The position numbers and the translations under genes were made by a program. Positions 4,775-59,690 of a stretch of DNA of 64,000 nucleotides are shown here, piece by piece. This stretch comes from Candidatus Binatia bacterium (GTDB lineage Bacteria > Desulfobacterota > Binatia > UBA9968), in contig DASXUF010000017.1 of NCBI GenBank assembly GCA_036504975.1, positions 13,561-77,560 of the forward strand, given 5' to 3'. The notes below the pieces were generated by a model, which made no database searches, was not told the origin of the DNA, and saw only the letters and a program-made list of their open reading frames with translations. Every line of letters starts with the position of its first letter. The stretch's first letter is position 1.

Positions 4775-5778
4775 TCATCTCACGGCAAGAAACTCGTTGT
4801 AAAGCTTCATATACCGGCTGTAGTCCCCTTCCGGCTTAATCACGTGCAGATTATCGCTCTCGAGAAGCTGGTCGATATCCTTGGAGGGGCTCTTGACGCC
4901 GCGCCGCAATGGGATCTTCCCGGCTCTGGCCAGCGCCTGCTGCCCCTCCTGAGAGAGATAAAAATCGACCAGCAGGCGCGCGGCGGCCGGATGGAGCGGG
5001 TTTCTCACCGCCGCGACCGTGGAGATCGTTGCGAACGTGGGAGAGCTGGGAAGCCAATCGACGGGCGCCCCTTTTCGTTTCATCGCATCGACCTTGGATA
5101 CCTGCGCAAAAATGGTCAGAGGGTATTCGCCCGCGGCCAGGAGATTGACCATGTGAGTGTAGCCTTCCACCAGCCTCAACTCCTGTTGGCTCAACTTTTT
5201 GAGATAAGCCGCTCCCTGCTCCTCGCCGCGCAGAGAGATCATACCGGTAAAGGGATACGGGACTCCACGATTGACGGCCATCTGCCCTTTGAATTGCGGC
5301 TTGAGATATTCATCGTAATTTTTCGGCGCCGCCGCCTTCGAGATCATCTTAGGATTAAAGCCGGTGATGAGCAAATCGGTGGTCATGCCCGACCAGTAAC
5401 CGTCGGGATCCGAGCTTCCGCTGATGAGATTCTTGGTTTCCGCGGAGCGGTGGGCGGAGAGAACCCCTTGCTGCTTGAAGTAGAGCATCGTCTCCAGGCT
5501 GTTTCCCAAAACGTCCGCCTGCACCCTTCCCGCCCGATGCTCTTGCATGACCCGCGCCGCCTGTCGGGCCGAGCTCAGGTAAACGTGACGGATGTTGAGA
5601 AAGGGATATTTTTCCTTTGCCGCTTTGCTGAACGCTTCGAAGTCCACCACCGTCATGGTCGTGTAGAGAATGACCTCGCCTTCCTTCTTCGCCTGCTCGA
5701 CGTTGTCCGTCGCTTGCGCGAAACAGAAAGCGGGCCAGAGAAGGAGCGCCCAAAAAAGGAGATTATGTTTTGGCTTCA
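4775..5778 (-). CDS. extracellular solute-binding protein, family-1 (Fe3+/thiamine-type) ABC substrate-binding protein
   Basis: Start re-assigned to the internal ATG (MKPKHNLLFWALLLWPAFCFAQA), which gives a signal peptide and a GGAGGAGAAG Shine-Dalgarno sequence on the minus strand. Paralog of 21043..22125; shared blocks include AKKEGEV..YTT and HRAGRVQADV versus ARAGKYNVDV. Confidence 0.55.
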
Positions 5779-5810
5779 TGTCTTCTCCTCCAGGATAAAC
5801 CGGACGAACG

Positions 5811-7253
5811 TCAGACGCCGAACGCCAGGCTCTTGATGACGACCGGCACGTAATCCTCTCCCGGCACGATCGCTCCGACGTCGATGAAGTCCATCTCGCC
5901 GAGCGAGATTTCATCCACGCACGGCATGCTCAGTTCTTTTCCCAGCGCTTCTCCGATGACCCGGCCGATGTTCTGCTCGAAGACGAGCATCTGCGGCCGC
6001 TCGGATGCAGGCACCTCCGCCAAAGCGCGGCGTATTCCCGTCGCCAGCTCCTGTGCCGCGCCGTAGCCCAAGAAAGGCGGGGAGATAAAAACCAGCGCGA
6101 ACGGCGAGCCCTTGACCTCCGGATCCATGGCGGCGATCGTCTTTCGAATCGCCTTTGCGGCTTTATCCGCGATCGGCGCATCCCAACTCACCTGAACCGT
6201 CGAGACTCTTAAGTTGTGCAGCGGCAGTGTTTTCGGATTCGGAATGAAGATCGTCTCGCCGCTCATCTGCATCGAATACTGCGACGCGCCGATGACCGTG
6301 GCGCGGATGCCTTCGCTCGAATCGAGAACCGCGTAGCGCCGCTTCCGTGCCTGTTCCCGCACCTCTTTCCCGAACAATACGCCGAGATCCCCGAAGCTCC
6401 CGGCCTCGCGGCCGTAAATATATTCGGCAACGCCGCCGGAAAAAAGAACCCCGTCGATTTGAGGCGGCAGGGCAAGCGCAGGCATGATCATGATCTCGCT
6501 CCACGGCGGCTCGCCGCCGGCGATCAAATCGAAAAGGATTTGCGCCATCTTCGCGGCGACTCCCCTGAGCGTCGGCGCATCGATCGGGTCGCCCAGGGCC
6601 AGCTGATAACCGGCATGGCGCAAAAATTTCTTACCGGACTGCTCCAGGCGTCTGATCCGGCCGCTCTTGTCGAAGGCGATCAACCGCGCGCCGATGTTGA
6701 GCGCCGTGACGCCGACGACTCTTCCCTTGTCGATCAGGCTCACCTTCGTGGTGCCGCCGCCGACGTCGATGTTGAGAAGCGTCGTTGCCTCTTCGCGGCT
6801 GCGGCCGACGGCGCCGGAGCCGTGCGCCGCGAGCAGCGCCTCCAGTCTGGGACCGGCGGTCGCGCACACGAACTGACCCGCCTGGGCGGAAAAAAGCTCG
6901 GCGATTTTCTGCGCGTTCTCCCGCCGCGCGGCTTCGCCGGTGATGATGACCGCGCCGGTGTCGATTTGCTCGCGGTTAAGACCCGCGGCGCGGAAGCTGC
7001 CGTCGATCAATTCGGCCAGCGGCCCGGCTTCGATGTTCCAGTCCCCCGTGAACGGCGTCAGCAGAACGGGAGAGCGGGCGATCAGCTTTCGCTCTAAAAT
7101 TTCGGGACGGCGCCGGTGCGCCGACGGATAGCCGATCGCGAGCTGCGAGAACATCAGATGAGAAGTCGAAGAGCCGATATCGATCCCGACGCTGACGAGA
7201 TGCGTATGCGGCACCGCGCTGCTCTCGTGGTCGTGTCCATGGTGATTATCCAT
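5811..7253 (-). CDS. EutA/GlmL-like ASKHA-fold ATPase (putative enzyme reactivase/chaperone)
   Basis: 480 aa. Two actin-like ATPase phosphate loops (VGIDIGSSTSH near the N-terminus, VDVGGGTTK mid-protein). Size and organisation resemble ethanolamine-ammonia-lyase reactivase EutA and glutamate-mutase GlmL. Confidence 0.45.
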   Translation of the reverse strand: MDNHHGHDHESSAVPHTHLVSVGIDIGSSTSHLMFSQLAIGYPSAHRRRPEILERKLIARSPVLLTPFTGDWNIEAGPLAELIDGSFRAAGLNREQIDTGAVIITGEAARRENAQKIAELFSAQAGQFVCATAGPRLEALLAAHGSGAVGRSREEATTLLNIDVGGGTTKVSLIDKGRVVGVTALNIGARLIAFDKSGRIRRLEQSGKKFLRHAGYQLALGDPIDAPTLRGVAAKMAQILFDLIAGGEPPWSEIMIMPALALPPQIDGVLFSGGVAEYIYGREAGSFGDLGVLFGKEVREQARKRRYAVLDSSEGIRATVIGASQYSMQMSGETIFIPNPKTLPLHNLRVSTVQVSWDAPIADKAAKAIRKTIAAMDPEVKGSPFALVFISPPFLGYGAAQELATGIRRALAEVPASERPQMLVFEQNIGRVIGEALGKELSMPCVDEISLGEMDFIDVGAIVPGEDYVPVVIKSLAFGV

Positions 7254-7457
7254 AACAAAATTTTGAATCTTGCCCCTCGTCAGTGTTAAAAAAATCCGTT
7301 CTTCAAGGCGGTCAGAAAGGTTTCAGCTGCGCGGCGCGCGAAGGTCCGCGAGCGGAGGCGTACTTTTTTTCAGTACGTTGACGCCATAGCCCGCCACTGG
7401 CGGGCGTTCCGCTAACCGGCCGAGCGCGACCATCTTAACGCTATGGCAGATGAGCCT

Positions 7458-8555
7458 TTATGGCCGCCTTGCTAGTGTAGTGTAGTAATCCGCTGGTTCC
7501 CCCTGCTGCGTATGCACGTACCCCGTCGACTCCATGGCGACGCGGCCGGAGTGGACGAGAAATCGCGCCGTCTCCTTGCCGGTGTTGAAGTGCTGGTGCC
7601 AGGCGAAGACCGGAATCACCAAGGTGTCGCCTTTCTTCCAATCGTATCTCTGGTCCTCGATGATACTGTAGCCTTCGCCGGAGAGCACGTATTCCGTTTC
7701 TTCGTAAATGTGCCGGTGCGCGCCCGAGCGCTTGCCAGCGGGAATTTCCGCGAGCAGAGTGCCCAAGATCTTCACGTGAAAGCCGAGCTTCGGATCGACT
7801 GCGTACGCGACCCGTCCCATCGGCGTCAAGCCGAAGCGCAATGTGCTTCCCTTGACCAGCACTTTCCCCGCTCTCCTGCGTTTTTCTTCGTGCTCAGCGT
7901 AAGTCAGTTGCTCGTAATAAATCTCCGCGGGACTGGGCTCGCCGCCGTTGCTCGTCTCGGCCGGCTTCCACTTGGCCGAGTCGAACTTGACTCGCGCTTC
8001 CGCCGGGATCTCCGCGCCTCCCGGCACTAGCGTCTTCATCGCCTCCTCGCCTTTCTGCGCGAAGATCCAGTACTCGGGATATTTTTCTTCTTCGTAGATC
8101 GCGATGCCCATCGCCATCGACAGCGGGCCCGTCGTCGCCGCCAGATAGACCAGCTCGTCGCCGCTCTCGTTGTGGTGCCGATGCCAGGCAAAGACCGGAA
8201 CACAAATTAAATCGCCGGCTTGCCAAGGATACTTGATCCCATCAATGACGCTGTAGCCATGCCCTTTGAGAATATAGATGACGGCCTCGACGGTATGGCG
8301 GTGGCCCAATTGCCAGCCGCTGAATTCCATCTCCTCGCCGGCGGTGCGGAGATTGATCCAGAAGCGGAAGGTCCGCTGGTTGAAGCCGAGGCGCGGATCG
8401 ACGATGTAGACGTGGTTGTGGTCTTTGAGCTGCGCGTCGATCTCCTCGGCCCTGACGTGGACCGGCGATTTTTTTCTTCGCTCCAGCTCCTCTTTGCCGA
8501 AGCGGATATGCTCCATCCGCATCCGCAAGTGGTCTTCTTTTCGCGCCATCACCAT
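7458..8555 (-). CDS. bicupin (two cupin barrels), gentisate-1,2-dioxygenase-like ring-cleavage dioxygenase family, copy 1
   Basis: 365 aa. Two cupin cores with His-containing motifs (GHRHTVEAVIYILKGHGYSVIDGI in the N-terminal barrel, SGAHRH...YVLSGEGYSIIED in the C-terminal barrel). Strong paralogy to 10555..11637; shared blocks include ICVPVFAWHRH, YPEYWIFAQK and ARFLVH. Confidence 0.6.
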   Translation of the reverse strand: MVMARKEDHLRMRMEHIRFGKEELERRKKSPVHVRAEEIDAQLKDHNHVYIVDPRLGFNQRTFRFWINLRTAGEEMEFSGWQLGHRHTVEAVIYILKGHGYSVIDGIKYPWQAGDLICVPVFAWHRHHNESGDELVYLAATTGPLSMAMGIAIYEEEKYPEYWIFAQKGEEAMKTLVPGGAEIPAEARVKFDSAKWKPAETSNGGEPSPAEIYYEQLTYAEHEEKRRRAGKVLVKGSTLRFGLTPMGRVAYAVDPKLGFHVKILGTLLAEIPAGKRSGAHRHIYEETEYVLSGEGYSIIEDQRYDWKKGDTLVIPVFAWHQHFNTGKETARFLVHSGRVAMESTGYVHTQQGEPADYYTTLARRP

Positions 8556-8571
8556 GACGAAATCCCCCTTC

Positions 8572-9522
8572 TCAAGCGATGCGTAAAAATAGTGTCTCGG
8601 AATCGATTTTTGCGCTCGCGATCCCCTGCTCGACGCCGTAGCGAATCAGCGTCTTGATGACTTTTTCGTTCGCCGCCATGCCGTAGCGCCACGGATCGCC
8701 GCCGAACATCTCGCGCTCTTCTTCCCACAAATCCCTGATCCACACGAAATTGGAAAACGTCGGGTCTTCGTCGTCCGCCAGCGCCAGCCGTTTCGCTTCG
8801 TCCCAGATTTTATAAAGTCTGCGCGCCAGCAAAGGGTGGTCGCGCGCAACCTGCTCCCGGATGACGATCGCGTGGTTGATCGGGAAAATTCCCGTGCGCC
8901 GGAAATAATCCATTTCCAGTTCCTTGGTATAAGAGAAGAGCCGGCGAATTCCCCTGGCCGCGATCACGTCGGGAGTAATCAACGCGTCCACCTCTCCCTT
9001 GAGAAGGCGCGCGCGCAGGTCGCGCTTTCCGGAGAACGATTCGATGACGGCGCCGGGCGGCGGCGTGAAATCGACCGCTTCTTTTCTGATAACTTTCCAG
9101 GCCATGTCCCGGGTTTTGAGTCCGTATTCGTCTCCCAGCAAGCCGCGCGCCCAGAGACCGCAGGTGTTGAGATACGACGGCACGCCGACGGCTTTACCCC
9201 TGAGGTCGGCGGCCTCCCGGATGGGCGAATCCTCGCGCAGGTATATAAAGGAGTAGCGGAATCGGCGGTTGGGGAAAACCGGAATAGCCACGAGCGGAGC
9301 GCCGTTGCTCTTGAGCGCCAGGTAGAGGGCCAGAGAAAGCTCCGAGGCGTCGAAGTCGCCGGCGAGAAAACGCCGATGGCGCTCGCCGTCGCTCTCGAAC
9401 GGAACGACCTTGAGCTTGAGGTCGCCCGTATCCACCCTCCCGTCCCATAAAGGCCGGGCGCGGACGTGGTAGCCGGTGGCCAGGACGAGGGGGCGATTTT
9501 TTTTCTTTACCGGACGGCTCAT
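8572..9522 (-). CDS. cytoplasmic PhnD/SsuA/NMT1-fold protein (4,5-dihydroxyphthalate-decarboxylase-like family)
   Basis: 316 aa with no signal peptide, but SBP-like two-lobed pattern (LRGKAVGVPS, EVDALITPDV). Proteins of this fold lacking signal peptides are annotated as aromatic-acid decarboxylases. Confidence 0.4.
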   Translation of the reverse strand: MSRPVKKKNRPLVLATGYHVRARPLWDGRVDTGDLKLKVVPFESDGERHRRFLAGDFDASELSLALYLALKSNGAPLVAIPVFPNRRFRYSFIYLREDSPIREAADLRGKAVGVPSYLNTCGLWARGLLGDEYGLKTRDMAWKVIRKEAVDFTPPPGAVIESFSGKRDLRARLLKGEVDALITPDVIAARGIRRLFSYTKELEMDYFRRTGIFPINHAIVIREQVARDHPLLARRLYKIWDEAKRLALADDEDPTFSNFVWIRDLWEEEREMFGGDPWRYGMAANEKVIKTLIRYGVEQGIASAKIDSETLFLRIA

Positions 9523-10463
9523 TTCAAACCTCGCGCGAACGAATAATCGAAGATCTCGCTCATCGGCAGCGCCTTTTTTCCCAGCTCGCCGCGGCTCTGC
9601 GCCCGCTCCAAAAATATATTAACGCGCTCTTCCGGCATCACCAGATCGTCAACCATGACGCCGGCGATGTCATCATACGCTTGCGCAGCGACATCCGGGG
9701 CCACCTGCCAGCTCTGTTGAATGTAGGCGACCGTGCCCTGCCGATCCTGGCGCACGGTTTTCAGCGTCTCGCGCAAAGCGAGAAGGAAGCTCCGGATGCG
9801 ATCCGGCTGTTTCTGGATTTTCTGCCGGCTCGTCACGACGCCGAGCCACGGCGCCTCGATCAGATCGCGGCTGTTCATGAGGACCTTATAGCCCTGGCGC
9901 GCCATGAGTCCGGTGAACGGCGGGCTCAGGACCGCGGCCTCGACCGAACCCTGCTGGAGCGCCGTCAGACTCACCGTCGTGCTCCCGGTCTGGATAAAGG
10001 TGATTTTTTTCTCATCGACGCCGCTGTTCTCCAGCATCAACGCGCCGTAGCGGTGGCTCTCCGAGCCGATGCGCGAGACCGCGACTTTCTTTCCTTCCAG
10101 ATCTTTCGGCCGCACGACGTGCGCCGGAGCCAGGAGCGAGAGCAGCGGCGCGCGATAGAGAACCGCCACGGTTTTCAGCGGCATGCCGTTGCTGATCCCG
10201 AGGATCGCCGGTCCGATCGCCGGATTGAAATCCAATTCACCGGAGACCAGACCGATCGTCTGGAGATTGCTCTGCATCGAAATAATTTCCAGGTCGATGC
10301 CGTGCTTCTCGAAGATCTTTTTATCTTTGCCGTAGTAGAACGGCAGAAACACCACGCTCCGGACGGAGACGCCCAGGCGCATCTTCTCCAATGCAGCAGC
10401 GGGAGAGGCTAAGACAATCGCCCCTAAGAGGACAGCGACAGATAATCGGCTTCGCGTAAACAT
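9519..10463 (-). CDS. ABC-transporter substrate-binding protein, NMT1/THI5-like, copy 2
   Basis: Start moved to the ATG giving MFTRSRLSVAVLLGAIVLASPAAA, a signal peptide. The upstream in-frame extension in the ORF track is a translated REP-like repeat. NMT1-like pattern present (LEGKKVAVS, GSVEAAVL). Confidence 0.6.
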   Translation of the reverse strand: MFTRSRLSVAVLLGAIVLASPAAALEKMRLGVSVRSVVFLPFYYGKDKKIFEKHGIDLEIISMQSNLQTIGLVSGELDFNPAIGPAILGISNGMPLKTVAVLYRAPLLSLLAPAHVVRPKDLEGKKVAVSRIGSESHRYGALMLENSGVDEKKITFIQTGSTTVSLTALQQGSVEAAVLSPPFTGLMARQGYKVLMNSRDLIEAPWLGVVTSRQKIQKQPDRIRSFLLALRETLKTVRQDRQGTVAYIQQSWQVAPDVAAQAYDDIAGVMVDDLVMPEERVNIFLERAQSRGELGKKALPMSEIFDYSFARGLK

Positions 10464-51822: not shown

Positions 51823-51867
51823 ATGCCGGCAAATGTTTCGCCACTCAAAGCGAAATGCGTGGGAGCC

Positions 51868-53886
51868 CTACTTTTTTTGGGACGCAGTACTCTCTTTTGG
51901 AACCGTCCGAAGTACCACACCTCGATCTCGTGCCCAACACTCCCTATCTGTCTCAGGGCACGCTGGACCTTCCTCACTGGTGATTGTAATGCGGTTGCTC
52001 TCAATACCTCCACGTGTTTGCAAGTAGTTGACAATACTTTCTGCCCTTTTAGACGGTAAATCCAAACTTTCCCCGGAAAGCGGATTTTGTCTCTTATACC
52101 AAACAACAAGTAAGCTATAATTTGGGTTTTGTTTAAAGAACATTGCGAGACGATCCAGAAGTTTTGCGGCATCCGGTTTCAAAGCAGTCTTGTCAAAATC
52201 AAACAACACAATGTTGTCAAGAATTACGGTACGTTCAATCTTAGGAGAGGGAGCGGCTTTTTTCGCCTGCTGCTCCACCTCTTCCAACCTCTTTGCCGCT
52301 TCTTCCGTTCTCCGCTGCACCTCGGCGACCTGTTTCTCAAATTGAGCAGCCCGCTGAACTTCGGGCTGTTGACCACCACCGGCAGCGGCTTTCCTTTGCA
52401 AGGCATTCAATTTTGCCAAGGTCATTGCAAGCTCTTCTTGAGCCACAACGAGATCTTTCGCCCGCATTGCGATACCCTGCTCTAACTTCGCTTGTTCAAC
52501 TGCCCTTAGTGCGGTTTGCCGCTGCAGATCAGCCTCCCTCTTTTGGAACAAGGATACACTAGTACCCAGAATAAGCATTATCGCAAAAATCGTCTTAAAA
52601 ACGGTTGGCACACGAAACCGCCGGCTCCTCCTTACTGCGCCCGCTACGCTGTCGTGACTAAGCTCATAATAAAATCCCTTCAGACCAGGGCGGGCCTCTT
52701 TTCGTATCAGCTTGGCATCGACAAGTGTTTTCAGCGCATTCTCCGAGATCCCGTATTGTTTACGAATCTGACCGTACTCCATGCTTATTCTGTGGCCGTC
52801 TGGACTCAGAAGTCCTAGTTCGCATAGACGTCGCGAGCGGCAACGCTGCCGAAAAGATGAGATCTCTCGCACAGCTTGACGGTAGAAATTTTCGAGGAGT
52901 TTTTCCATGTTCTTGGCGCCACCGAGCAATTGGTCATCAACCAGGATGTCTTTTGACCCTTCTTGCTGGCGGCGAAGAACCTGTTGCTCCGCGTGCTGGC
53001 AGATAATTTGAAGCTGAAACGGTTCCACTTCACCTTGTCGACTGGCCAGAAAAGCCATTATGCTGTCGAGCGTAGCTTTCTTATAACGAAAAGGCCGCGT
53101 CGCGAACACTTCAGGTAAGTCCAGAAGCGCCGGCTCAACCACGGCTCGTCGAGCCGCTTGCGTATCCAACGGTGTGAGACGAAATCGCTGCTCGAAGATT
53201 CCGGGAATATTCTGGACAAGTTGCTCCAGCGCTCCCACGTACTCTTCGCGGAAACTCAAGATAATCTTAATTTCTGGTGGCGAGTCCGCATAACGCCCGC
53301 GATCTGGCGAGGGCGGCTCCTTACGAATCCTTTCCGGTAAGCCTCGGCCGACAAGCTCCCCCAGTTGACGTGCGAGGGCGACGCGAACAGATTCCGACTG
53401 CAGATTGAATACCTCCTCGAATTGATCGAAGACCAGGACCGGTACCTGAAGCGTATCACCGCGCCATAAGTCCGTGGCCTTGAAAAATTCCCACAAACCT
53501 TCAGTTTTACGGTCGGTATAGTCAACCGCCTGTTCCTGACAGGTAGTTCGCAGCAACGCAAAAACAGCTTCAATGGGACCGATATCGGGTCGATCAAGCC
53601 GTATGCTTACGGGCAGTAGTCCGTACTCGCGGAGTCGTGGGAAAAGGCCTGCTCTTAGAAGAGATGTTTTTCCCAGACCCGATTTGCCGAAAATGACGAG
53701 CATGCGAGTCGCTCGAACCCGATGCACTAAATCGTAGATTTCCTGCTCGCGGCCAAAAAACAATCGTTGATCGAGTTCGTTGTCTTCGAAGTACCGTGGA
53801 CCGGGATATCGCTCGTGTGAGCCGGGCGTCAGAGACAAGACTGTTTCTTCTTCACGCTTCGCTATGGCGACCGCAGCTTTACTCAC
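51868..53886 (-). CDS. STAND-type P-loop NTPase with central TM helix, periplasmic coiled coil and C-terminal OmpA-like peptidoglycan-binding domain (island gene 4)
   Basis: 672 aa, GTG start 2 nt after the upstream stop. The N-terminal NTPase has Walker A (GKSGLGKTS) and Walker B (VLVFDQFEE) in an nSTAND/AAA_16-like context, preceded by the FGREQEI motif. A hydrophobic segment (VFKTIFAIMLILGTSVSLF) follows, then a Gln/Ala/Glu-rich coiled coil. The C-terminal ~100 aa (LFDFDKTALKPDAAKLLDRLAMFFKQNPNYSLLVV...SKRAESIVNYLQTRG) are OmpA_C-like. Low-GC segment. Confidence 0.55.
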   Translation of the reverse strand: MSKAAVAIAKREEETVLSLTPGSHERYPGPRYFEDNELDQRLFFGREQEIYDLVHRVRATRMLVIFGKSGLGKTSLLRAGLFPRLREYGLLPVSIRLDRPDIGPIEAVFALLRTTCQEQAVDYTDRKTEGLWEFFKATDLWRGDTLQVPVLVFDQFEEVFNLQSESVRVALARQLGELVGRGLPERIRKEPPSPDRGRYADSPPEIKIILSFREEYVGALEQLVQNIPGIFEQRFRLTPLDTQAARRAVVEPALLDLPEVFATRPFRYKKATLDSIMAFLASRQGEVEPFQLQIICQHAEQQVLRRQQEGSKDILVDDQLLGGAKNMEKLLENFYRQAVREISSFRQRCRSRRLCELGLLSPDGHRISMEYGQIRKQYGISENALKTLVDAKLIRKEARPGLKGFYYELSHDSVAGAVRRSRRFRVPTVFKTIFAIMLILGTSVSLFQKREADLQRQTALRAVEQAKLEQGIAMRAKDLVVAQEELAMTLAKLNALQRKAAAGGGQQPEVQRAAQFEKQVAEVQRRTEEAAKRLEEVEQQAKKAAPSPKIERTVILDNIVLFDFDKTALKPDAAKLLDRLAMFFKQNPNYSLLVVWYKRQNPLSGESLDLPSKRAESIVNYLQTRGGIESNRITITSEEGPACPETDRECWARDRGVVLRTVPKESTASQKK

Positions 53887-53888
53887 GA

Positions 53889-55211
53889 TCAGTCCCCTCT
53901 AATACGGTTCTGCCGCTTAACCCAGTTCGCCTGGATGTGACTCGCCAGGCGTTCCAGGCCATGTGGATCAGTCAGTTCAACACGCTGTAACTTATCCAGG
54001 CGTTCGAGTCCTAGGGACCCTTCCAAAATTGCAGGAATCAGAAAAGACTCGCCCTCATCGAATTCCTTTTGCCGCTCCAGTGCTTCCGCGATCTCTTTAT
54101 GGATATAACTCCGCGGTTTCGAAAGCATGTTCGGTGTTTGAAGTACAAGTACGTAGTCCACTTGCTTCCCCAGGACATGTACGATGCGTCTATTCCAATC
54201 ATCGCCACCGCGGAGATCCTGCTGGTCGCGCCATGTATCGACCCCGAGGCTATGTAATTTTTGCTCCACTTCCATCACCCGCTCTTGATCACGCCTATCG
54301 TAGCAAAGGAATACTTTGGGAGAGTTGGGCGGTATTTCCCGTACTACTGCCTGTGGAGCTTGTGCTTCGTAGAGCCGACGCAGCTCAGACGCAAAGTCGG
54401 ACCACGAATAATGCCGGAACTCGATCTTGTGCTCCTGGGTGAAAAACACTGCGCTTTGAGCGCTATCCGGGTGGTCGAAGAATGCAGCACCTTCTACCGC
54501 CAACGATCGATTACGATGGCGATACGTTTGCAAGACGTGAAGCAGCACACGCGCGTACCAGCGCTGAAAACCAAAACCAAGAAACAGAAACGACGTGCCA
54601 GGGTCGGCGAGCTGACCCGCGATATACGGCGGCAGAGGATGGGTACCTTTGATTATATTTACCAGGAATTCCAGCAAGTCGGTCTCTGTTAATACCAACG
54701 AATCTAGTTCCTTAAGATCGCCGTGGAGTTGATAGACGATTGGATGCTGAATAGTACCTTTGGAGAGACTCGTCGGCCGATGTTTCTGGTAATGGTAAAA
54801 GTCGTAAGTCGAAGATTTGTGGGCATCTTTCAAAGCGTTTACCATGAAGGGGACATAACTCATGCTCAAACAAAGTGTAAAAGGCAACGCAGCGAGATCT
54901 TCATGAAACCGCGAGGTACGCTTCGCAAACGGCGCATAGAAGTCCTTTACTTCCAGTTCCAGATCGTAGTGATCACCTCCGGGACTGTTGCAACGGAGCT
55001 GAGCCACCTGGGCTAAGTCCTTCCGAATGATATCTGGCGTATCTGCCGGCAGTTTTCGAGCCAGGTGTTGGGCGAGTTTGGTTGTGAGCGGGGTGTGATC
55101 AGGGTCGTCGGGATCAAAAACCATATCAGGTCCGCATACGAGGACACAGTTGCCCCGATTGATCGATTCAATTAAGCGGCGCCAGTCTTGTTCTGAAAGG
55201 CTATCTTTCAT
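53889..55211 (-). CDS. SIR2-like (SIR2_2/DHS-like) N-domain fused to a C-terminal TIR domain (island gene 3)
   Basis: 440 aa. The N-terminal ~250 aa match SIR2_2-type blocks (NCVLVCGPDMV ... HPIVYQLHGDLKELDSLVLTETDLLEFL ... SFLFLGFGFQ). The C-terminal ~140 aa form a TIR domain (KVFLCYDRRDQERVMEVEQKLHSLGVDTWRDQQDLRGGDDWNRRIVHVLGKQVDYVLVLQTPNMLSKPRSYIHKEIAEALER) with the conserved Glu context. Confidence 0.55.
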   Translation of the reverse strand: MKDSLSEQDWRRLIESINRGNCVLVCGPDMVFDPDDPDHTPLTTKLAQHLARKLPADTPDIIRKDLAQVAQLRCNSPGGDHYDLELEVKDFYAPFAKRTSRFHEDLAALPFTLCLSMSYVPFMVNALKDAHKSSTYDFYHYQKHRPTSLSKGTIQHPIVYQLHGDLKELDSLVLTETDLLEFLVNIIKGTHPLPPYIAGQLADPGTSFLFLGFGFQRWYARVLLHVLQTYRHRNRSLAVEGAAFFDHPDSAQSAVFFTQEHKIEFRHYSWSDFASELRRLYEAQAPQAVVREIPPNSPKVFLCYDRRDQERVMEVEQKLHSLGVDTWRDQQDLRGGDDWNRRIVHVLGKQVDYVLVLQTPNMLSKPRSYIHKEIAEALERQKEFDEGESFLIPAILEGSLGLERLDKLQRVELTDPHGLERLASHIQANWVKRQNRIRGD

Positions 55212-55271
55212 GTCAGAGTCTTTTTCTAGTCGGGTCGCAATTCCGTTTCAGGACAACTGCACCTAGAACAA

Positions 55272-56144
55272 CTAACTCAACGTTAGCTCGGCCTTTCCAA
55301 TTCCGCCGGCCGGAATTGTGACGGATATTTCAGATGCTTTGGGAGTACCGTTAATGATTCCTTCCGCCTTTACGACATGCACTCCAGGCGACAACTCTCG
55401 AAGAGCTGCGCTCTTACCGGTATAGTTGGCCGGACTTCCTCCGTCGATCGAGAGTTTCCAAACCGCCGCGCTCTGATCGCCATTCGTTACAGTTACGTTT
55501 AAACCTCCCAACTCGCTCACAGCCGCCTTTGCCCTCGCGGCCTCTTCTACTTGCTTCAAACTTTCCTGAAATTCGCGAATCCAAGTATTCGTCTCCTCTT
55601 GGACGACCGTTGTGACCTGATTAATAAAAGTCTTCGCCCGGCCCAGCATCGTTTGGACCTGGTCATCCGTCGGGTCTGATCCCTTCCAACCCGCTTTCAA
55701 GGTTTGCCATTCCAATTCGAACTCCCGTAGAAGCTGACGAATCCGCAGCTCCGCCGAAATGTAACGCATCCACCCGCTGGAAAAACCAAAGAAGCGGTCG
55801 ACTACGATCATCGCGGCGGCAATACCCAAAGACACGGAAGCCCATGCCGGCTGTATCAACGGCTTGCCGTCCTCAACAAAAATCTGAACTACCATCGGAA
55901 TAATTCCGGCCAGTGCTGTTAGAACGATTGCTCCCATTCGCGCCCGCATTGCCCATTGCTGTTTAGGTCGTTTTGCTTTCAAGTACCAATCTATAGCGCT
56001 TTTAGCCTCGGCCGTTAGGTGATCAAATAAAAGCTCAAGAGAATTCTGGCGCTTGCTAGGCTCCCATTCTAATTTAGGAAGTGGAGAATGTTGAATGTCC
56101 GTCCGCTTAGGCATTCCTGACTGTTTCCGCCTTATGGCAATCAA
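55272..56144 (-). CDS. SLATT-like 2-TM protein with C-terminal beta-rich (Ig/PEGA-like) domain (island gene 2)
   Basis: 290 aa. An amphipathic N-helix (AIDWYLKAKRPKQQW) is followed by two closely spaced TM helices (MGAIVLTALAGIIPMVV / VSLGIAAAMIVVDRFF). A helical segment follows (WMRYISAELRIRQLLREFELEW), as in SLATT pore-forming effector domains. The C-terminal ~90 aa are beta-rich. Confidence 0.4.
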   Translation of the reverse strand: MIAIRRKQSGMPKRTDIQHSPLPKLEWEPSKRQNSLELLFDHLTAEAKSAIDWYLKAKRPKQQWAMRARMGAIVLTALAGIIPMVVQIFVEDGKPLIQPAWASVSLGIAAAMIVVDRFFGFSSGWMRYISAELRIRQLLREFELEWQTLKAGWKGSDPTDDQVQTMLGRAKTFINQVTTVVQEETNTWIREFQESLKQVEEAARAKAAVSELGGLNVTVTNGDQSAAVWKLSIDGGSPANYTGKSAALRELSPGVHVVKAEGIINGTPKASEISVTIPAGGIGKAELTLS

Positions 56145-56324
56145 TCCTCAGCCTAGCTGGTTGGTTAGTAAAATAGGGCGAATTGTGGATTGGTGTCAAG
56201 ACGAAACAGGGATGATCCCGAATCAAATAATTTTTGCGTCGCTTTTGCTCCGTCTTTGAAGGACGACTCACTTTTCAAAACGGTAGCTTTGGAGGGCAGG
56301 TCAGTCAAAATAAGACGCTGCAAT

Positions 56325-57131
56325 CTACGCTTTTTGGAATCTGAGTTGCCCATCTCTAACCTCTGCCGAAAATTCTACAATTTGAAACGTAATATTCTCG
56401 CCGGTTACTTGGATTCCTAAATTATATAAACCATCCGGAAATTTATTAGGTCGCGATCTGTCGGCGTAAAAAATGACAAATTCTTTCTCATCTCCAGCCG
56501 CCTCAACCTTTCCAACGACGGTAATAAAGTTGCTCCCACCTGGATTTAAATCGAACGCTGTCCTGTAGGGAATGTCGTCATCTGATGGCCTGTCATGCAT
56601 CTGCCTGAGCGGAATAGGTAAGAATGGAACTCTATATTCTCTGACGTAAGCTAGCTCCACTTTGATGTTTTTTAGCACCACATCACTTAGATTTTTTATT
56701 TCAATTCGATGCATCCGTAGAAAAGCACCAGCCCAAACCTCATCTACTTGTTCATACGATCCTCCGACATCATGTAGAATTGCGACTTTAGCTGTTAACC
56801 GGTCCTCGAAATATTCGATGGTTTGGCGTTGCGAGATATCAATTAATACGGGAGTCGCAATGGTACGCACTAGAAAAAATCCCGCAGCAACTATCATGAA
56901 TGCCCCAAAAATCGATAGGGCAGGAATCACGACATCATCTGTTAGCTTAGGGATTTCCCATTCAAAGATATTTACCAAAAAATACCAGCCTATTACCGTG
57001 ACTAATGCCGTCTTGAGAACTGAGGCAAAGGATCCAAATATCCCTGTAACCGTATCCTTAAAAGCTTTCGCAAGAATCGTTCTCCAATATTGACCAAAGT
57101 GCTTGGCGAACTTCCAAGACAAAACCAGCAT
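56325..57131 (-). CDS. hypothetical integral membrane protein (island gene 1)
   Basis: Start placed at internal ATG (MLVLSWKF) with a GAAGGGGGG RBS. Three or four N-terminal TM helices then a ~170-aa soluble domain with no recognisable motifs. Lowest-GC gene of the island. Confidence 0.4.
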   Translation of the reverse strand: MLVLSWKFAKHFGQYWRTILAKAFKDTVTGIFGSFASVLKTALVTVIGWYFLVNIFEWEIPKLTDDVVIPALSIFGAFMIVAAGFFLVRTIATPVLIDISQRQTIEYFEDRLTAKVAILHDVGGSYEQVDEVWAGAFLRMHRIEIKNLSDVVLKNIKVELAYVREYRVPFLPIPLRQMHDRPSDDDIPYRTAFDLNPGGSNFITVVGKVEAAGDEKEFVIFYADRSRPNKFPDGLYNLGIQVTGENITFQIVEFSAEVRDGQLRFQKA

Positions 57132-57297
57132 ACCTGCCCCCCTTCCAATCGCGGGCAGTCTAGGACGTACCTCCGATTTAGGCAAACGATGGCGGAAACT
57201 ACTTTGGTCTCAAGTCCGACTTGATTACCAAAGCGTTGAGTCGGAGAGTGGCCTGAACTCTAGGTTTAAATTAGTTTTCTCCGGACTCGGATTGTCA

Positions 57298-59051: not shown

Positions 59052-59291
59052 GTGAACAAGATCAACATTCACCAGGCAAAGACCCAGTTTTCCCGGCTCG
59101 TCGAGCGCGCCGCCGGAGGCGAAGAGATCGTCATCGCCAAGTCGGGCAAACCAATCGCCCGCTTGGTTCCTTATACCGCGCGGAACGAGCCCCGCCGGCC
59201 CGGGTACCTGCGCGGGAAGATCCGCGTCAAGAAGACATTTGATCGAGCTCTCCCAAAAAAGCTGCTGGCATCCTTTGAAGGTAAATCCTGA
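59052..59291 (+). CDS. type II antitoxin, Phd/YefM family
   Basis: 79 aa with the N-terminal Phd-like motif (INIHQAKTQFSRLVERAAGGEEIVIAKSGKPIARLVP). Stop overlaps the toxin start. Confidence 0.7.
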   Translation: MNKINIHQAKTQFSRLVERAAGGEEIVIAKSGKPIARLVPYTARNEPRRPGYLRGKIRVKKTFDRALPKKLLASFEGKS

Positions 59292-59294
59292 GCC

Positions 59295-59690
59295 GTGGTG
59301 CTGCTCCTCGATACCCACGTCCTGATCTGGTGGTTGGCAGACGACCGCAGGCTAAGCAAGGACGCACGCAACTTAATCGCCGACGCCCATCACCGGGTGC
59401 TCGTTAGCGCCGCGTCCGTCTGGGAGATTGCCATCAAATCCGCTCTAAAAAGGATTGAAATCGAACTCGACGACCTGGAGGACGCGATTCTCAAAAGCGG
59501 ATTCGAGCCTTTGCCGATCGCCCTGCTACATGCCGTCCGAGTCGGTCGACTGCCAGATGTTCACCGTGATCCGTTCGACCGCATGCTGGTAGCTCAAGCC
59601 GGCGTCGAAGAACTGCGGCTAGTCACTCATGATCGAGTATTCGAGCGCTACGGTCTGACCGCCGAAGGCCTGCCACCCATTTTCGTTTGA
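59295..59690 (+). CDS. vapC: type II toxin VapC (PIN domain RNase)
   Basis: 131 aa, GTG start. PIN acidic residues (LLLDTHVLIWW ... SVWEIAIK ... LVTHD). Confidence 0.8.
   Translation: MVLLLDTHVLIWWLADDRRLSKDARNLIADAHHRVLVSAASVWEIAIKSALKRIEIELDDLEDAILKSGFEPLPIALLHAVRVGRLPDVHRDPFDRMLVAQAGVEELRLVTHDRVFERYGLTAEGLPPIFV

Follow-up and report, generated by a model that had tools for sequence, protein, structure and literature searches.

The SLATT superfamily reportedly goes back to Burroughs et al. (2015). SLATT proteins are predicted to be pore-forming effectors that respond to nucleotides or to ADP-ribose (ADPr) derivatives (PMC7159879, PMC9503650). In type VII Thoeris, a TIR protein makes cyclic ADP-ribose (cADPR) and a SLATT effector, ThsH, kills; the NAD+-derived TIR product is predicted to make ThsH oligomerise in the membrane, and the protein is toxic when cADPR is supplied and is proposed to have positively charged pockets between protomers (bioRxiv 10.64898/2025.12.03.692087). 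A SLATT protein is also needed for the toxicity and defence of DRT10, a system built on a reverse transcriptase (RT) and a non-coding RNA (ncRNA) (bioRxiv 10.64898/2026.04.29.721553). Here a SLATT gene is described that lies beside genes for a TIR protein and a STAND nucleoside triphosphatase (NTPase) in 64,000 nucleotides (nt) of contig DASXUF010000017.1, from a metagenome-assembled genome (MAG) of a Candidatus Binatia bacterium; this whole stretch is referred to as the window. The product, a SLATT_2 protein ending in a beta-sandwich (SLATT_2-beta), is viewed with a little better than even confidence as a membrane effector coupled to TIR/SIR2-STAND immunity, in which it would be an optional and exchangeable output and not an obligate core component.

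The longest open reading frame (ORF) of the gene, 55272 to 56144 on the minus strand, starts with TTG at 56144 and encodes 290 amino acids (aa); residues of the SLATT protein are numbered by it throughout. The true start is likely the ATG at 56114, since the public gene call for the identical 280-aa protein (P0001, NCBI/JGI) begins there, at M11, which is also where the N-termini of homologs line up. The protein matches the Pfam SLATT_2 model PF18183 with 74 bits against a cutoff of 25 (E 1.8e-20, profile positions 1-182 of 192) and the NCBIfam SLATT_2 model NF033633 with 139.7 bits against a cutoff of 40 (E 7.4e-41, profile positions 4-181 of 182). The cutoff of the NCBIfam SLATT_1 model is passed as well (54.6 bits). 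As in other members, a short loop separates the two transmembrane (TM) helices and the motif DRFFGFS..W.R is present, and the place of the protein in the SLATT_2 family is virtually certain. An earlier reading of the DNA letters (the original prediction) had called it a SLATT-like 2-TM protein and had proposed a SLATT profile search as a check; the name holds, and the search gives a clear SLATT_2 match rather than none. However, the SLATT identity is mostly already known and the call adds little, since the exact protein carries the NCBI label 'SLATT domain-containing protein [Candidatus Binatia bacterium]'.

PF18183 and NF033633 do not cover the C-terminal beta-sandwich of ~80 aa, which itself has no Pfam family, and short SLATT_2 relatives (~205-230 aa) are without it. 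SLATT_2 genes with and without this module are referred to as beta-type and short-type. Altogether 91 homologs of the window protein were collected, most of which span more than 90% of the query. No match to the protein was found among PHROGs or, by tblastn, in phage records, and plasmid records gave only distant tblastn matches (22-26% identity) on megaplasmids or chromids. While the SLATT family and its annotation are known, three things are modestly new. The first is a large SLATT_2 subfamily with a conserved, unnamed and predicted cytoplasmic beta-sandwich, which is also found in a protein with TIR and several TM helices and in giant tandem-repeat proteins. The second is the modular pairing of this subfamily with very different sets of TIR/SIR2 and STAND genes, and the third is the exchange, between two related genomes, of the cassette at one site with the SLATT gene retained.

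The SLATT gene is the first of three genes on the minus strand. It is followed, after a gap of 60 bp, by a gene for a degenerate SIR2-like domain joined to TIR_2 (SIR2-TIR), and then by a gene for an nSTAND1 protein with an OmpA-like tail (nSTAND1-OmpA), which begins 2 nt past the stop codon of SIR2-TIR. The three genes have a G+C content (GC) of 0.512-0.513 and a third-position GC (GC3) of 0.50-0.54, compared with ~0.57-0.61 and 0.65-0.80 in the flanks. Because strand, gaps and composition agree in this way, the three genes are best explained as one horizontally acquired operon of uniform composition.

Similar arrangements are found elsewhere. Loci were surveyed with small home-made hidden Markov models (HMMs) on six-frame ORFs, and the resulting counts are lower bounds and not an enrichment statistic. 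A TIR, SIR2 or STAND gene is found within ~6 kb of about 10 of the 27 beta-type loci, versus 3 of 22 short-type loci, and the neighbours differ widely from locus to locus (Table 1). A tblastn search of 45 genomic loci with the window's partner proteins found them only in L004, L039 and L040; thus the partners are not conserved at the sequence level. That beta-type SLATT_2 genes recurrently adjoin unrelated TIR, SIR2 or STAND genes supports a coupling between effector and partners.

An exchange of partners is seen directly at locus L046 of a related genome (compared span 4807-10383), which is syntenic with the window. The two loci share a chromosomal site between an AMP-ligase gene and a FAD-monooxygenase gene, and their flanks are 85-86% identical. 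The SLATT proteins are 88% identical and their genes 83.5% identical at the nt level. In place of window positions 51823-55278, which hold SIR2-TIR and nSTAND1-OmpA, L046 has unrelated genes for TIR-AAA_35 and AAA_35-WD40 proteins. The SLATT stop codon is the exact point where homology between the two breaks off, and it is regained at the end of the monooxygenase gene. Both alternative cassettes encode TIR and STAND, and the retention of the SLATT gene while one such pair replaces another again supports coupling. A third line of support is P0204, a 489-aa protein in which TIR_2 (residues 4-114) is followed by about four TM helices and then by the beta module (374-454), with no recognisable SLATT domain.

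A rather unlikely alternative, but one to be taken seriously, is that SLATT_2-beta is an autonomous single-gene module, for example a toxin that acts alone in abortive infection or a membrane protein gated by stress, at a defence hotspot beside an independent SIR2-TIR and nSTAND1 pair. Several observations favour such a module, most of which weigh against coupling. The pair is complete in 4 of 4 sampled loci (L059-L062), none of which has a SLATT gene; thus it does not need SLATT. In at least 15 of the 27 beta-type loci, no neighbouring TIR, SIR2 or STAND gene could be detected; some beta-type genes adjoin unrelated genes, and three (L049-L051) look solitary. The exchange at L046 fits equally well a resident SLATT gene that stays beside a variable hotspot while its neighbours are exchanged, and the 83.5% nt identity of the gene is near that of the flanking core genes. 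A promoter-like site is also present directly upstream of the SLATT gene. It is weak evidence, a consensus match at 10 of 12 positions in a region where such sites are no more numerous than expected by chance, and it falls within the stretch conserved with L046.

Other points also weigh against coupling. No PADLOC model matches the SLATT protein, and the homolog alignment shows no conserved basic (nucleotide) pocket in the beta module. To our knowledge no SLATT_2 member has been tested experimentally, which makes the compact three-gene operon a reasonable test case; a pore-forming role of SLATT_2 is a prediction, with experimental support from other subfamilies (ThsH, DRT10 SLATT-5). In addition, the usual view of TIR domains in STAND proteins is that they are effectors which deplete NAD+ and not makers of a signal (bioRxiv 10.64898/2025.12.03.692087).

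What argues against an autonomous module is that TIR, SIR2 and STAND genes, which are rare in genomes, are on the same strand as the beta-type genes they accompany, and often adjacent, in the ~10 of 27 loci counted above. Further, the cassettes at the shared site are of the same TIR and STAND kind, the three window genes are identical in GC and GC3, and TIR, TM helices and the beta module are joined in P0204. In the favoured reading, SIR2-TIR and nSTAND1 would form a self-standing sensor and enzyme module, and SLATT_2-beta would be an optional companion of many NADase/STAND modules. The original prediction had made the SLATT protein the membrane-disrupting executioner of the island. This has to be softened to a role it may have, since the TIR protein with its E373 could itself kill by depleting NAD+ and the 4 sampled pairs do without SLATT.

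If SLATT_2-beta is a coupled effector, it would sit in the inner membrane through two close TM helices, preceded by an N-terminal helix and followed by a two-helix stalk and a C-terminal beta-sandwich, all three in the cytoplasm. The STAND NTPase would detect infection or an envelope cue, then oligomerise and turn on the TIR NADase. An NAD+-derived TIR product, or the activated complex itself, would make SLATT protomers assemble, and the SLATT oligomer would permeabilise the membrane, aborting infection. An NAD+-derived small-molecule trigger is favoured over a specific protein interface because the partner sets share only TIR or SIR2 chemistry. The diversity of partners and the exchange of cassettes likewise suggest a shared small-molecule currency. 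Such a trigger agrees with the earlier view of SLATT as a permeability effector under the control of ADPr derivatives (PMC9503650, PMC7159879) and with the experimental precedent of type VII Thoeris. Confirmation would connect STAND/NLR-like sensing with TIR signalling of the Thoeris kind and with membrane killing. A broader proposal, that beta-type SLATT_2 proteins are general plug-in effectors which read an NAD+-derived messenger from STAND-activated TIR/SIR2, with the beta-sandwich as receptor or oligomerisation latch, is tentative and on the doubtful side. Were it true, a class of Avs/NLR-like TIR-STAND systems would signal in the Thoeris style to a separate membrane killer, beyond NAD+ depletion.

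The AlphaFold2 (AF2) model of the window protein has a mean predicted local distance difference test (pLDDT) score of 87.6. It shows a long helix (H32-88), a hairpin and a second helix (H100-119), followed by two long helices (H121-151 and H160-209, cytoplasmic) and the beta module. The close spacing of the two TM helices in the original prediction agrees with hydropathy and with this model, the loop between them being short (EDGKPLIQPA). The amphipathic helix that it placed before them matches the N-terminal, cytoplasmic stretch of H32-88, and the model shows residues 1-31 as coil at lower confidence. Fold matches of the helical SLATT part of the model are weak (coiled-coil, BAR or STAT-like only) and uninformative. 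Residues D116, G120, W125 and R127 are invariant across 34 homologs, and R117, F118, F119, S122, F142 and W146 are nearly so. The W/Y-rich segment quoted earlier as a conserved helix (WMRYISAELRIRQLLREFELEW) starts inside this block, the most conserved of the family, and its conservation is thus upheld.

The ratio of K/R to D/E residues is 5 to 1 in the N-terminal flank of TM helix 1, 1 to 2 in the loop between the TM helices and 3 to 2 in the C-terminal flank. By the positive-inside rule both termini, and hence the beta-sandwich, are predicted to be cytoplasmic. P0204 agrees with this, as its even number of TM helices places the module on the same side as TIR. Binding of the envelope by the tail, as had been suggested, is therefore unlikely. 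The conserved basic and aromatic residues of the 34 homologs lie in the juxtamembrane SLATT core, and Y54, K61, R69, R117, W125 and R127 are more likely than the beta-sandwich to form a signal-binding site. These residues may be compared to the charged inter-protomer pockets proposed for ThsH.

The beta module is modelled with high confidence, with a pLDDT of ~96 as part of the full AF2 model and of 90.9 in a separate model made with 25 homologs. In these models the tail fold is an Ig-like/transthyretin-like beta-sandwich, a class that contains PEGA as well. The Ig/PEGA-like tail of the original prediction thus stands at the level of fold class, with seven strands, and not as a sequence family: a Pfam scan of the full protein at E<=10 gave no PEGA (PF08308) match, and with the 85-aa tail by itself a scan at E<=1 gave no match to PEGA or to any other Pfam family. 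PEGA membership by sequence was therefore set aside. The sole trace of PEGA is a partial match below threshold (19 bits versus 20.8) in the repeat protein P0105. Within the transthyretin-like/carboxypeptidase-regulatory/CnaB/PEGA class, the window tail is without a sequence match to PEGA or CarboxypepD_reg, and its predicted cytoplasmic location sets it apart from most members of the transthyretin-like/CnaB/PEGA class.

It should be noted that the module is not an appended extra, as was first thought. It can be aligned across the whole beta-type subfamily and is present in the majority of the 91 homologs, and a search of 1.84 billion representatives with a profile of the module gave 1303 proteins (E<=0.001). 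One group of these proteins is of SLATT size (~280 aa) and carries the module C-terminally. The other consists of large proteins with 4-29 tandem modules and weak partial matches to assorted Ig-like Pfam families. These giants (P0092, P0093 and similar, 700-5100 aa) look like an uncurated repeat family. P0099 has SLATT_2 and two beta modules, and with P0204 the SLATT tail module is found in a second membrane protein linked to TIR. Conservation in the module falls mainly on Gly, Asn and Asp residues in turns; because of this pattern, a role of the beta-sandwich in oligomerisation, autoinhibition or partner docking is more likely than signal binding.

A second, improbable alternative is that the SLATT protein is a membrane scaffold or regulator and not a killer, its cytoplasmic stalk and beta-sandwich serving to bring TIR/STAND to the inner membrane, or to hold them in check there, beside nSTAND1-OmpA. 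The beta-sandwich is a typical protein-protein interaction fold, here with no conserved basic pocket; nSTAND1-OmpA is itself membrane-anchored, by its TM segment and OmpA; and TIR, with E373 invariant, could be the real effector. However, such very varied partners, most of them soluble (TIR-AAA_35, TIR-NACHT, nSTAND1-TPR), speak against a single dedicated docking interface, and the SLATT proteins tested in other subfamilies are toxic effectors.

It is very improbable that the window protein is a ThsH of type VII Thoeris answering canonical cADPR. That system is defined by adjacent TIR and SLATT genes, as are present in the window. At one further locus (L014), a small TIR gene with a weak match to ThsB_TIR lies beside a beta-type SLATT_2 gene; the layout there is that of a two-gene Thoeris-like system, with a SLATT class different from that of type VII. 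As a reference, ThsH from L056 was used, whose neighbour is a ThsB that has 90% identity to the validated protein of Pseudohongiella. In this ThsH, SLATT_3 (146 bits) and SLATT_1 (112.7 bits) stand in tandem, giving four TM helices altogether; the beta module is absent, and pairwise comparison with the window protein reveals no similarity (BLASTP E = 3.9). The TIR protein of type VII is a small standalone ThsB (143 aa, PF08937) with no STAND NTPase or SIR2-like domain, while the window TIR is a TIR_2 that shares its protein with a SIR2-like domain and is coupled to a STAND NTPase. Type VII membership was rejected on these two defining features, a ThsH-type effector and a small standalone PF08937 TIR.

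That the window protein is a 2TM effector of CBASS (a cyclic-oligonucleotide system) can practically be dismissed, for although SLATT domains were first defined through their association with SMODS and SLOG and occur in CBASS (PMC7159879), no SMODS/CD-NTase or SLOG gene is present in the Pfam annotations of the source contig from ~1.3 kb upstream to 10 kb downstream or was seen in related loci, CD-NTase/SMODS is absent from the four window genes scanned with Pfam, and no PADLOC CBASS effector model matches. The original prediction had seen a layout common to CBASS and TIR-associated SLATT effectors; of the two, the TIR association stands, in that a TIR gene adjoins, and CBASS membership is refuted by the lack of a cyclase. 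Similarity to DRT10/UG17 is more general: its SLATT-5 protein is the toxic output of a multi-gene module, and SLATT and partner evolve independently and modularly (bioRxiv 10.64898/2026.04.29.721553). However, SLATT-5 is another SLATT subfamily and its partners are the RT and ncRNA. No RT is annotated near the window SLATT gene, and its leader has no Rfam match at E<=1 and folds no better than shuffled sequences (z = -1.08); a DRT10-like system was rejected. The window SLATT protein probably works like the Thoeris, CBASS and DRT10 effectors, at the membrane and downstream of a nucleotide-type signal, and belongs to none of these systems.

Table 1. Features of the SLATT operon in the window, and neighbours of beta-type SLATT_2 genes at other loci
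Feature	Location	Strand	Details
SLATT_2 + beta-sandwich gene	window 55272..56114	-	280 aa from ATG 56114; ORF, public gene call, homolog N-termini
SLATT_2 domain	window 55545..56099	-	residues 16-200 of 290-aa ORF; Pfam PF18183 and NCBIfam NF033633
TM helix 1	window 55872..55937	-	residues ~70-91; hydropathy windows >1.5; part of H32-88 in AF2 model
TM helix 2	window 55785..55856	-	residues ~97-120; hydropathy; H100-119 in AF2 model
Family signature DRFFGFSSGWMR	window 55764..55799	-	residues 116-127, cytoplasmic end of TM helix 2; conservation in 34 homologs
Seven-strand transthyretin-like/Ig-like beta-sandwich	window 55284..55508	-	residues 213-287; predicted cytoplasmic
Partner gene 1, degenerate SIR2-like + TIR_2	window 53889..55211	-	440 aa; Pfam SIR2_2, TIR_2
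Partner gene 2, nSTAND1 + TM + coiled coil + OmpA-like	window 51868..53886	-	Pfam
Promoter-like TTGACA-18-TATTTT	window 56170..56199	-	upstream of SLATT gene; consensus scan; weak evidence
Two SIR2_2 genes and nSTAND1-TPR	L048		beside beta-type SLATT_2
TIR_2-NACHT	L054		beside beta-type SLATT_2
Three TIR_2 genes	L001		beside beta-type SLATT_2
Standalone TIR_2 and beta-type SLATT_2	L014 9195-10876	+	TIR_2 of 142 aa, weak ThsB_TIR match, 303 bp upstream of SLATT_2 on the same strand
nSTAND1-WD40 protein	L039		1491 aa; N-terminal part matched home-made SIR2 model; beside beta-type SLATT_2
SIR2_2 and nSTAND1	L004		~6 kb from beta-type SLATT_2
Calcineurin-like phosphoesterase-TPR giant	L005		beside beta-type SLATT_2

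The SIR2-TIR protein belongs to a large family (296 matches at E<=1e-5). In its SIR2-like domain the ThsA motif TTNYD is replaced by SMSYV, and the family consensus has TTPD. Among 25 homologs the SIR2 Asn and the His of HG are not conserved, while E373 of TIR, a Glu of the catalytic type, is invariant. For this reason the TIR domain is likely an active NADase and the SIR2-like domain probably non-catalytic.

The nSTAND1 domain of the second partner is matched by Pfam with 103 bits versus 27.1, and the OmpA-like domain with 40 bits, with additional NCBIfam matches of the Pal/OmpA type. The protein has a Walker A motif GKSGLGKT (residues 67-74, G67-K73), a TM segment at ~428-449, a coiled coil and the OmpA-like domain at 561-638. 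From this layout it is predicted to be membrane-anchored, with a periplasmic, peptidoglycan-binding OmpA-like tail. In the 4 sampled loci that have the pair (L059-L062) the order is also SIR2-TIR and then nSTAND1, and the C-terminal domain is FGE-sulfatase in three and TPR in one. Since these domains stand where OmpA is found in the window, the cue sensed by nSTAND1-OmpA may come from the cell envelope.

A Walker A motif, a variable C-terminal sensor domain and a coupled effector-domain gene are the marks of an nSTAND1-centred conflict system, and the partner genes have all three. Thus they resemble STAND immune proteins with TIR/SIR2 (Avs/bNACHT-like proteins and the nSTAND1 systems of the Aravind group), in which nSTAND1 and a variable C-terminal sensor (OmpA, FGE-sulfatase, TPR, WD40) are paired with TIR/SIR2. 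They differ in that the NADase module and the NTPase of the window are separate, translationally coupled genes, that the SIR2-like domain is degenerate, and that an upstream SLATT_2 membrane protein, outside the usual description of these systems, is added.

In L061 (3278-8443) a pair resembling a diversity-generating retroelement (DGR), bAvd and an RVT_1 reverse transcriptase, is found directly upstream of SIR2-TIR and nSTAND1-FGE-sulfatase, and a second nSTAND1-FGE-sulfatase gene lies nearby. Given the DGR-like pair, the sensor domain may undergo targeted hypervariation.

Upstream of the SLATT gene, the ORF at 56325-57185 on the minus strand encodes 286 aa, with two N-terminal TM helices predicted from the translation and an unrecognised C-terminal domain. 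Its product has no Pfam, NCBIfam, PADLOC or PHROG match. The gene was considered as a fourth component of the operon and set aside, as it is missing from the syntenic L046, matches no family, and has a GC of 0.43, far below both the island (0.51) and the flanks. It is probably a separate and more recent insertion. No tRNA marks an integration site. Farther away, at window positions 59052-59690 on the plus strand, are two small overlapping ORFs (79 and 131 aa), whose translations resemble an antitoxin and a PIN-domain toxin.

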